From NCBI GenBank assembly GCA_040400605.1, contig JBBAPZ010000006.1, positions 97,524 to 161,523 on the forward strand: a DNA stretch of 64,000 nt, read 5' to 3'. The translations under genes were made by a program, and so were the position numbers. Positions 32,963 to 35,379 of the stretch are shown here, in pieces. The stretch's first letter is position 1. The number at the start of each line of letters is the position of its first letter. The DNA comes from Candidatus Sericytochromatia bacterium (GTDB lineage: Bacteria; Cyanobacteriota; Sericytochromatia; S15B-MN24; JAQBPE01). Under the pieces are notes generated by a model, which had not been told where the DNA came from, made no database searches, and saw only the letters and a list, made by a program, of their open reading frames with translations.

Positions 32963-33307
32963 TCAAAAAATGGCAGTCAATGATGCGTCCAGTCGCGCAA
33001 GACAGGCCAATTTTTGCAGGCGGGACAACTGTTTAAAAGCATATTCGGCGCGCAGGGCCACCCGTCGTGAATCAAGCATCCAATAGCCAACGAGGGTCAC
33101 AGGCAAATGGGCGCGGGTATAGTGGCCGCCCTTCCCCTTTTGATGCATCCGCAACCGTTGACGCAAATCACGCGTGTATCCCGTGTAAAGACTGCCATCC
33201 GCACATCGCAAGATGTAAACGACATCGTGCCCGCACAGAGGCAGCCGCGCAGCGTGAACCCATCGTTCGGCTGTCAGCACCGCCAGGGCAGGGTGGCTCG
33301 CCTGCAT
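32963..33307 (-). CDS. GIY-YIG nuclease superfamily protein (UPF0213/YhbQ-like)
   Basis: VYILRCADGSLYTGYTRDLRQRLRMHQKG is a GIY-YIG motif. Its start overlaps the upstream stop (TGATG). Confidence 0.6.
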   Translation of the reverse strand: MQASHPALAVLTAERWVHAARLPLCGHDVVYILRCADGSLYTGYTRDLRQRLRMHQKGKGGHYTRAHLPVTLVGYWMLDSRRVALRAEYAFKQLSRLQKLACLARLDASLTAIF

Positions 33308-35379
33308 CAAATCGACTGCATCCACGGGCGCAAGTGACCACCGGATTGCGTCAACAGCCTATCCGCAGTCACGGCATCCACGCCTTGCTGATGCATCACC
33401 ACCGCACGCTTGACCGAGCCCCCCGCTGTATCAAGGAGGCGTTGGCTGGATGAATCATCTTCACGGGTCAGTTGTGCAACAAGACGCCGTGCCCGTTGAC
33501 GCAATTTCTGATTCGAACACTGCACATCCACCATCAAATTGTCGTAAACCTTGCCCAATTGCACCATGGTCAAGGTTGTGATCATATTCAAGACCATCTT
33601 GGTTGCCGAACCCGCTTTCAGGCGCGTGGAACCTGCGACAATCTCCGGCCCGACAGGGAGAACCAAGACGTGATCGGGCACAAAGGGGGTCGCGTGTGGC
33701 TGGTTGCAGGTTAGCAGCACCGTTGCTGCTTCAGCTGCGCGTGCCGCCGCGAGGGCCCCCCAGACATACTGTGCGTGTCCGTTGGCACTGATTCCGACGA
33801 CGATGTCGTGAAGCCCAACCGTTAAAGCGTTGACATCCGCCGCGCCAGCCGACGCGTCATCCTCAGCGCCTTCGATGGCATGTCGCAGGGCGCGATCGCC
33901 CCCCGCAACAATGCCTTGCACCTGCCACTGCGGCACTGAAAAAGTCGGGTAACACTCGGATGCATCCAGCACGCCAAGGCGACCGCTCGTGCCAGCCCCA
34001 ACATAAATCAGGCGCCCCCCGTCACGCAGGCGTGCAACGGTATCGTCAATCACTGCAGCGATCGCCTCCGTGGCGGTGTCAATCGCCCGTAACACGTCGT
34101 AGTCCTGCGAATGCATCACCTGGACCGCGCTGCGGGTGTTCAGGCGATCCAGTCCGGAACTGACCGGATTGGACGCCTCCGTCAACAACTGGGCTGTCCC
34201 TGCCACAACACCTGCCAGTACCCCGCGCCCCCAATTGTTTCCAGGCACGATTTGACCCAAAACCGCTGAGTGCGAGGCACCGGTCACGTGCGGCAATTGG
34301 TTGATTTGGCCGTGAACGGCCTGGTACGCCAAAATGGCGAAAGCGAACGCTTCTTTGTGATCGGCGTTGATCCCCAACTCATCACTGACACACACCCGAC
34401 ACTCGGGCAAAACCTTGACCAGCGAATCAAGCAACGCCGGGTTCCTTGCACCACCACCGGACACCCACACGGTTCGCGGAAACTGCCCTGCAGGCAAAAA
34501 CCGACGGTATTGATCAGCCACACACGCAGCCGTGTAAGCCGTCGCAGTCGCTATCAAATCAACTCCCCAAACGCCCATTCCCTCAGCCTGATGCTTCAAT
34601 CGTTCGACGAACGCCGCGCCATAACGCTCGCGCCCCGTCGACTTGGGCAACGGCTGCCGTAAATAATCATCCGCGGCCAACCAAACAGACAGCAGTTCGT
34701 CTTGAACGCGCCCGGCCTTGGCAAGCAAACCGCCATCATCCCAGCGTTGCGCGCCACCGCTGAAATCTTCCACCAAGGCATCAATGACCATGCAACCGGG
34801 ACCCGTATCGAAAGCCAGCACCTTGGCTGGATCACCATCGGCACTCAAACAGGTCACATTGCCGATGCCGCCGAAATTCTGCATCGCCATCGATTCACCT
34901 GAGCGCCCCCAACACAGCCAATCGACATAGGGTACCAAGGGCGCACCCTGTCCTTGGCGCGCCACATCACCGACTCGAAACTCACCCACCGTGGTGATCC
35001 CGGTGCGCGCCGCGATAACGGCAGGTTCACCCAGTTGAAACGTGAATGCTTCCGGCCCGCACGGCTGGTGCCAGACCGTTTGTCCCGCCACGCCAATGAG
35101 ATCGATTTGTTCCGGACGCAACCCGCGCTCACTTAAAAATCGCAGGACCAAATCAGCCCAATGTTCACCCAACGCGACATCCAAGCCCGCGACCTCAGCG
35201 ACACTGGCGAGGCCTGTTCGATAAAGCGCTGCGATGCGCGCGCGCAAGGACTCAGGCAAAGACCAGGTTGCAGCATCCAACAATTGTGCCTGCAACCGGG
35301 TCCCCCAACCCTGAATATCCACCAAAGCCACGTCACAACCATCAAGCGACGTGCCGGACATCAAGCCAATCACCCACAT
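33307..35379 (-). CDS. bifunctional fusion: anhydro-N-acetylmuramic acid kinase (AnmK, N-terminal) + N-acetylmuramic acid-6-phosphate etherase (MurQ, C-terminal SIS domain)
   Basis: N-terminus [21 protein letters not shown]...PKSTGRE matches AnmK. The C-terminal half, [26 protein letters not shown]...[20 protein letters not shown]...[11 protein letters not shown], matches MurQ. It is a single uninterrupted 690-aa frame. Confidence 0.8.
   Translation of the reverse strand: [690 protein letters not shown]

Follow-up and report, generated by a model that had tools for sequence, protein, structure and literature searches.

In peptidoglycan recycling, as summarised in the literature, the enzymes NagZ, AnmK and MurQ act in that order. 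In a 64,000-nucleotide stretch of DNA from Candidatus Sericytochromatia bacterium (contig JBBAPZ010000006.1, positions 97,524 to 161,523 of the forward strand; hereafter the window), AnmK and MurQ appear in a single gene that diverges from a NagZ-like gene. This locus raises the question of whether the gene makes one genuine enzyme for two consecutive steps, and whether joining the two domains channels the intermediate, the 6-phosphate of N-acetylmuramic acid (MurNAc-6-P), from one active site to the other. We conclude that the product is very probably a genuine two-domain bifunctional enzyme, a member of a conserved fusion family, that would convert 1,6-anhydro-N-acetylmuramic acid (anhMurNAc) to N-acetylglucosamine 6-phosphate (GlcNAc-6-P). 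The gene and its parts are as follows, with residues of the protein counted from the ATG at 35379 (690-residue form).

33307..35379, minus strand: bifunctional AnmK-MurQ coding sequence, complete, 690 amino acids, stop codon TGA at 33309..33307
34234..35379, minus strand: AnmK domain with the ASKHA fold, residues 1-382, assigned by Pfam, NCBIfam and structure match
34192..34233, minus strand: inter-domain linker, residues 383-396 (14 residues), variable and predicted to be disordered
33310..34191, minus strand: MurQ domain, comprising a SIS domain and a C-terminal lid, residues 397-690

A single, authentic reading frame

The minus-strand open reading frame (ORF) runs uninterrupted over 33307..35427 and encodes 706 amino acids from its first ATG or 690 from the ATG at 35379. 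Pfam and NCBIfam place AnmK at the N terminus and MurQ at the C terminus of this one frame, just as the initial annotation had read it. That annotation had regarded a stop or frameshift at the domain junction as fatal to its reading; the junction DNA (34150..34270) reads through with no stop and no change of frame. The GC content and skew are likewise continuous across the ORF, with no compositional break.

Public gene callers start the protein at the ATG at 35427 to give the 706-residue form. We reject this start in favor of 35379 for three reasons. A Shine-Dalgarno-like GGGGGGA (35393..35387, minus strand) lies 7 nt 5′ of the ATG at 35379; the motif MxVxGLMSGTS occurs at the equivalent N terminus in 19 of the 19 aligned homologues; and the upstream ATG at 35427 lacks a Shine-Dalgarno motif and abuts a promoter-like block that is conserved in relatives. 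Both elements fall between the two divergent genes:

35380..35544, no strand assigned: intergenic region from which the fusion gene and the GH3 gene diverge, with the Shine-Dalgarno-like GGGGGGA and the promoter-like block
35442..35428, minus strand: promoter-like block TTCAATGTACACGAT, conserved as CATAATCTACACCAT, without the ATG, in the related loci L082 and L083

The block may be the −10 region or an operator of the fusion gene. It came from the alignment; a scan of the divergent intergenic region for promoter and terminator consensus sequences gave nothing convincing.

The simplest alternative is that the fusion arose in assembly or sequencing, through a lost stop or a frameshift between adjacent genes. 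Other genomes do carry anmK-murQ pairs that are one in-frame stop apart, and a single base error there could mimic a fusion. The identical protein (P0001, in its 706-residue form) is recorded in assemblies from NCBI, JGI, ENA and Logan, however, and near-identical 706-residue members are located on separate contigs. The same product, flanked by the same genes, is also encoded on an independent Logan contig (L001). In addition, at least 120 divergent clusters share the architecture, and the linker of the window protein aligns with the linkers of its homologues. An artefact is therefore next to inconceivable: the fusion is genuine.

Both halves retain the features of their families

In the N-terminal half, Pfam assigns residues 2-379 to the AnmK family (PF03702) with E 7.7e-100 and 334.9 bits, where the cut-off is 24. 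It also passes the NCBIfam AnmK equivalog NF007148, with 426.2 bits against a curated cut-off of 387, and the match covers residues 1-380 and positions 9-385 of the 386 in the profile. In AnmK from Pseudomonas aeruginosa, Asp182 has been described as the general base and Ser12, Asp14, Asn168, Asp191, Phe202 and Glu326 as ligands of ATP, Mg or the sugar. A phmmer alignment to 3QBW places S12, D14, N168, D182, D191, F202 and E326 of that enzyme at S11, D13, N174, D191, D200, W213 and E343 of the window protein, respectively. These residues are invariant across 20 aligned fusions, with the exception of the Phe-to-Trp position (W213), where the aromatic character is kept.

The AlphaFold2 model, built on a 20-sequence alignment of fusions, has a mean predicted local distance difference test (pLDDT) score of 88.3. 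Its N-terminal half adopts the two-lobed ASKHA kinase fold and superimposes on AnmK (3QBX) with a template modelling (TM) score of 0.95 and a root-mean-square deviation of 2.0 Å. The domain thus resembles the enzymes of P. aeruginosa and Escherichia coli (3QBX, 8BRE) in fold (TM 0.95), in sequence (~36% identity), in the published catalytic and ligand residues that it keeps, and in its position in the pathway after NagZ. Known AnmK enzymes are stand-alone proteins of ~365 amino acids, whereas AnmK in the window carries a C-terminal MurQ domain.

The C-terminal half passes the NCBIfam MurQ equivalog TIGR00274 (323.7 bits against a cut-off of 302) over residues 398-685 and positions 1-288 of the 291 in the profile, and it reaches 361 bits on NF003915 against a cut-off of 168. 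Two glutamate motifs, LDASEC (E475) and EGAEDD (E503/E506), are identical to those in three solved MurQ enzymes and are invariant in the 20 aligned fusions. We take E475 and E506 to correspond to Glu83 (DASEC) and Glu114 (EGAED) of E. coli MurQ; the two catalytic glutamates of the E. coli enzyme were reportedly identified by Hadi et al. in 2008. The modeled C-terminal half superimposes on the MurQ structures 4LZJ, 4S12 and 1NRI with TM scores of 0.92-0.95 (0.92-0.93 for 4LZJ and 4S12). The match to MurQ from E. coli, Haemophilus influenzae (4LZJ) and Yersinia enterocolitica (4S12) extends end to end over ~290 residues at 43-47% identity, with the same glutamate motifs. The known MurQ enzymes differ in that they are stand-alone homodimers, often encoded with murP and murR, whereas this one is fused behind AnmK. 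We scanned with Pfam 30 further large ORFs out of the 50 window ORFs of at least 230 amino acids, and no MurP or MurR was among them near the fusion.

Failure of either half to align with its family over the full length was the other outcome that the initial annotation had considered fatal. Because both halves are complete by the NCBIfam profiles, with near-complete profile coverage, that question is settled for the fusion. With the equivalog cut-offs passed, the catalytic residues kept and the folds matched, both halves qualify as proper AnmK and MurQ domains, and on their sequences each is judged to be full length with its catalytic residues intact.

SIS domains derived from MurQ have been turned into regulators elsewhere, as in GKRP and MurR, and Pfam sees SIS/GKRP-type families in the C-terminal half, starting at about residue 438. 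One half could, by analogy, be catalytically dead and serve as a sugar-phosphate-sensing or regulatory module. We regard this as very unlikely, given that the 20 fusions show no variation in the two MurQ glutamate motifs or in the complete AnmK catalytic set, that the MurQ equivalog cut-off is passed, and that the Foldseek alignments give 42-47% identity to active MurQ enzymes.

A proposed route from anhMurNAc to GlcNAc-6-P

From these features and from the neighbouring gene we infer the activities, the substrate and the advantage of the fusion. The gene that diverges from the fusion is the following:

35545..37086, plus strand: glycosidase of family GH3 with two domains, a NagZ-like beta-N-acetylglucosaminidase; ORF open from 35488, database start at 35545

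The GH3 protein matches PF00933 (E 1e-77), and its best PDB matches are the GH3 protein 3SQL, the GH3 beta-N-acetylglucosaminidase 6K5J and Bacillus subtilis YbbD/NagZ. It carries the motif AKHFPGHAETSDDSH, which departs by one G-to-A change from KH(F/I)PG(H/L)GxxxxD(S/T)H. We take the latter to be the Asp-His signature of NagZ-type GH3 enzymes, which is said to go back to Litzinger et al. 2010. In the proposed route, the GH3 enzyme would cleave N-acetylglucosamine (GlcNAc) from GlcNAc-anhMurNAc and so supply anhMurNAc. The AnmK domain would then open the 1,6-anhydro ring with ATP and water and phosphorylate O6, yielding MurNAc-6-P, from which the MurQ domain would remove the D-lactyl ether to leave GlcNAc-6-P and D-lactate.

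Several points weigh against this route. Compared by sequence with the PDB, the kinase half scores best not with an AnmK but with a fungal (Lipomyces) levoglucosan kinase, at 232 bits against 185-191 for AnmK; by sequence, the domain is closer to the bacterial lineage that gave rise to the fungal enzyme than the known AnmK enzymes are. Identification of the kinase substrate therefore rests on the NCBIfam model and the context. The GH3 neighbour fails the NCBIfam NagZ equivalog NF003740, with 138.4 bits against a cut-off of 207; this model is built on the single-domain proteobacterial type of NagZ. Among the scanned window ORFs, AmpG, AmpD, NagA, NagK, LdcA and Mpl were not found, housekeeping genes appearing instead; with AmpG, AmpD, NagA and NagK absent from the scan, a complete recycling pathway in this organism is not shown. 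Finally, the literature that we searched held no biochemical data on any member of the AnmK-MurQ fusion family.

The first of these points corresponds to a distinct explanation, in which the substrate of the kinase domain is not anhMurNAc but another anhydrosugar, in the manner of levoglucosan kinase. Apart from the top-scoring solved relative, the evidence points the other way. The AnmK equivalog NF007148 is passed, and the modeled domain is closer in structure to AnmK (TM 0.95) than to levoglucosan kinase (TM 0.84). Moreover, glucose 6-phosphate, the product of levoglucosan kinase, is not a MurQ substrate, so that there would be no sense in fusing such a kinase to MurQ or in its linkage to NagZ or NamZ. 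We consider this explanation highly improbable and retain anhMurNAc as the probable substrate of the kinase. As to the GH3 gene, the NagZ assigned by the initial annotation holds in so far as the gene is divergent from the fusion, has N-acetylglucosaminidase relatives and carries the signature; its score stays below the NF003740 cut-off.

A well-populated fusion family

The initial annotation left open whether the fusion is a unique event. It is not: 120 or more clusters at 90% identity, and 25 or more at the 50% level, share the architecture. The first figure is a lower bound that comes from the best 120 database matches, clustered at 90% identity. All of these are full-length fusions of 639-737 amino acids with 80-100% query coverage and, apart from the window protein's own entry (P0001, 100%), they are 42-57% identical to it. 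Their source names include Candidatus Sericytochromatia, Cyanobacteria bacterium RYN_339 (labelled 'Multifunctional fusion protein'), Stenomitos, Anaerolineae, Roseiflexaceae, Thermoflexales and Bellilinea. The window protein shares its domain order and similar length (670-737 amino acids) with these relatives (among them proteins from metagenome-assembled genomes of Sericytochromatia and from RYN_339, Anaerolineae and Roseiflexaceae), the nearest of which share its gene neighbourhood as well. Its closest relatives other than itself are only 53-57% identical to it, which makes it a divergent lineage of this family.

An exhaustive search of 1.84 billion representatives at 50% identity returned 3,931 proteins that match the fusion at E<=1e-30. 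Architecture was taken from the top 150, of which 25 are AnmK-MurQ fusions or fragments thereof and 3 have the reverse order, MurQ-AnmK. The AnmK-MurQ fusions occur chiefly in Sericytochromatia-like or cyanobacterial lineages and in Chloroflexota. By these sequence counts, the AnmK-first fusion is a small minority of AnmK and MurQ diversity, yet a well-populated family.

Other combinations were observed in the same search. The reverse-order proteins are P0133, P0142 and P0145. MurQ is also fused, in both orders, to a BcrAD_BadFG kinase of the MurK/NagK type (P0212, P0250, P0273 and P0254). In a further group (P0152, P0153, P0170 and P0269), the partner of AnmK is a BcrAD_BadFG kinase, a serine hydrolase of the Beta-lactamase family, DUF4416 or an Orn/DAP decarboxylase. 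The BcrAD_BadFG-MurQ proteins follow the same logic as the window fusion, a kinase that makes MurNAc-6-P being joined to the etherase that consumes it. They differ in that the kinase belongs to another family and presumably takes MurNAc rather than anhMurNAc, and in that both orders occur.

We found no paper describing an AnmK-MurQ fusion in the literature searched, an absence that proves nothing for the literature at large. The window protein is already deposited, and its architecture is abundant and automatically labelled in databases; it combines known enzymes of a known pathway in an existing fusion family.

Origin of the fusion

We scanned species-representative genomes with the fusion alignment. 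Among the matches listed, which do not include the genome of the window itself, many loci match the whole query within ~2 kb. On inspection of the ORFs most of these proved to be adjacent separate genes in either order, and only L002 and L006, both from Chloroflexota, are single-ORF fusions. On this ground we reject an apparent occurrence of the fusion in Planctomycetota, Proteobacteria, Bacteroidota, Firmicutes and other phyla.

Several of the anmK-murQ pairs share a frame with one stop between them. In L003:4898-6988 (Candidatus Aquidulcis, Chloroflexota), a single stop inside the linker separates the in-frame anmK and murQ (...ITPGRAGRLPAAG*QPAPHWRLMRLTETINP...); comparable in-frame pairs are seen in L004 (Gastranaerophilales) and L050 (Massilia). 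Such pairs are either one mutation away from a fusion or recent fissions. L003 itself may represent a fusion that has split secondarily, a stage before fusion or an error in sequencing.

Trees built for each domain by neighbour joining, which are rough, carry no support values and were used only for this point, sort the fusions into no fewer than two large clades. One clade (n=48) holds the window protein with Sericytochromatia proteins and proteins labelled as cyanobacterial, and the other is the Chloroflexota group, within which L003 nests for either domain. Stand-alone sequences separate the two fused clades in both domain trees. Firmer evidence than these trees for more than one fusion event comes from the reverse-order MurQ-AnmK proteins. 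Judging from the adjacent genes, the fusion family probably began when the stop codon that separated neighbouring anmK and murQ was lost. The recurrence of kinase-etherase fusions suggests that coupling the production of MurNAc-6-P to its consumption has been selected repeatedly and confers a real advantage.

The linker and the question of channelling

The initial annotation held that a covalent fusion implies channelling of MurNAc-6-P, a step that the model does not bear out. The linker is variable in length and sequence among homologues (17-69 residues by one measure), and the alignment of 20 fusions shows no conserved linker or interface residues. In the AlphaFold2 model the pLDDT falls below 50 at residues 388-397, and the predicted TM score (pTM) is only 0.59. 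Because the linker is disordered and the pTM is low despite confident domains, no defined interface between the domains is predicted. The structure search returned no PDB entry containing both AnmK and MurQ domains.

A defined inter-domain assembly that hands MurNAc-6-P straight from the kinase to the etherase active site nevertheless has points in its favor. Fusions of a kinase to the etherase have come about independently more than once, in either order and with two kinase families. The parent AnmK and MurQ enzymes are both homodimers, so that a fused dimer could bring the sites together; by this reasoning the protein could form a closed dimer or larger assemblies. Set against the disordered and variable linker, the lack of a predicted fixed interface and the lack of conserved residues there, we judge such an assembly to be rather unlikely. 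The bolder form of the idea, to which we likewise give only a small chance, is that repeated independent selection of kinase-MurQ coupling serves to keep MurNAc-6-P low or away from competitors, and that a fused homodimer of homodimers forms an assembly that channels the intermediate kinetically. The competing routes or regulators would be the MupP/AmgK/MurU salvage pathway and MurR-type sensing. If the idea is true, no channelling step in peptidoglycan recycling would have been described before this one.

Since the linker is short and flexible, the likely benefit of the bifunctional enzyme is simpler. Proximity and co-expression, of necessity at a ratio of 1:1, would keep MurNAc-6-P low and committed to GlcNAc-6-P in place of a structural tunnel.

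Genes around the fusion

Besides the GH3 gene, the following features surround the fusion:

37177..38463, plus strand: LCP (LytR-CpsA-Psr) protein that also has a LytR_C domain; relatives keep its gene in synteny with that for GH3
32963..33307, minus strand: small GIY-YIG domain protein of 114 amino acids, whose ATG overlaps the TGA of the fusion by one base (TGATG)
31836..32882, minus strand: response-regulator receiver fused to HD_5/HD (HD-GYP-like), directly downstream of the GIY-YIG gene
31684..31760, minus strand: tRNA-Pro(CGG), between the response-regulator/HD and Polyketide_cyc genes
26327..30530: cluster of UDP-glucose dehydrogenase, B12-binding radical-SAM and GT4 glycosyltransferase genes, syntenic with L082 and L083

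The LCP gene (PF03816, E 2.5e-42; TIGR00350, 136 bits against a cut-off of 62) lies just downstream of the NagZ-like gene, where the initial annotation had put it. LCP enzymes attach glycopolymers to the wall and are not enzymes of recycling. The further claim that muropeptide recycling is compacted at this locus consequently holds for the NagZ-like and AnmK-MurQ genes, three activities in two genes; it does not extend to the LCP gene, nor to the other recycling genes, which our scan did not find. The UDP-glucose dehydrogenase, radical-SAM and GT4 cluster is probably a unit for the biosynthesis of envelope glycan and may be related to the nearby LCP gene.

Translational coupling of the fusion to the GIY-YIG gene had also been put forward. 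The one-base TGATG overlap is there, but the adjacency is not conserved, the two genes being separated in L083 and the GIY-YIG gene absent in L082. For this reason we reject the GIY-YIG protein as a part of the system, and a functional link to the fusion is doubtful. The response-regulator/HD gene occupies the same position in L082 and L083.

An extended block of genes is shared between the window, GCA_036675505.1 and the Candidatus Sericytochromatia metagenome-assembled genome GCA_035285125.1. It comprises a CarboxypepD_reg/NHL protein, a 162-residue protein, the LCP and GH3 proteins and then, divergently, the fusion, in some cases the GIY-YIG protein, the response-regulator/HD protein, Polyketide_cyc, UDP-glucose dehydrogenase, radical SAM and GT4. 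Given this synteny in two Sericytochromatia-like genomes, the divergent arrangement of nagZ and anmK-murQ is most likely ancestral to the Sericytochromatia-like group. By the same synteny, a Sericytochromatia-like member of the Cyanobacteriota is the most likely source of the window.

The fusions of Chloroflexota lie beside genes for NamZ and an ABC transporter, in contrast to the NagZ-like neighbour in the window. In GCA_016841965.1 (L085:6804-7982 and its neighbours), the fusion is divergent from NamZ, an exo-beta-N-acetylmuramidase, after which come a GntR regulator and an ABC transporter for sugar. This locus looks like one for scavenging peptidoglycan, distinct from the NagZ context of the window. 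A fusion from a true cyanobacterium (L084) has no related neighbours. Directly upstream of it, L084:5955-7766 encodes a 603-residue protein that matches Pfam Cas12f1-like_TNB (PF07282) and is possibly of the TnpB or Cas12f type; an intein-containing protein is encoded nearby.

Implications

If both domains are active, a single polypeptide would take anhMurNAc to GlcNAc-6-P. Such a protein would be a handy one-enzyme reagent for muropeptide analytics, as well as a natural test case for the channelling of peptidoglycan-recycling intermediates. Otherwise, the finding confirms the logic of the textbook pathway, adds no new biology and will not surprise the specialist. The recurrent kinase-etherase fusions amount to 'Rosetta-stone' evidence that ties AnmK and the MurK-type kinases to MurQ in the little-studied Sericytochromatia, other Cyanobacteriota and Chloroflexota, and they point to use of the catabolic MurQ route in these lineages.

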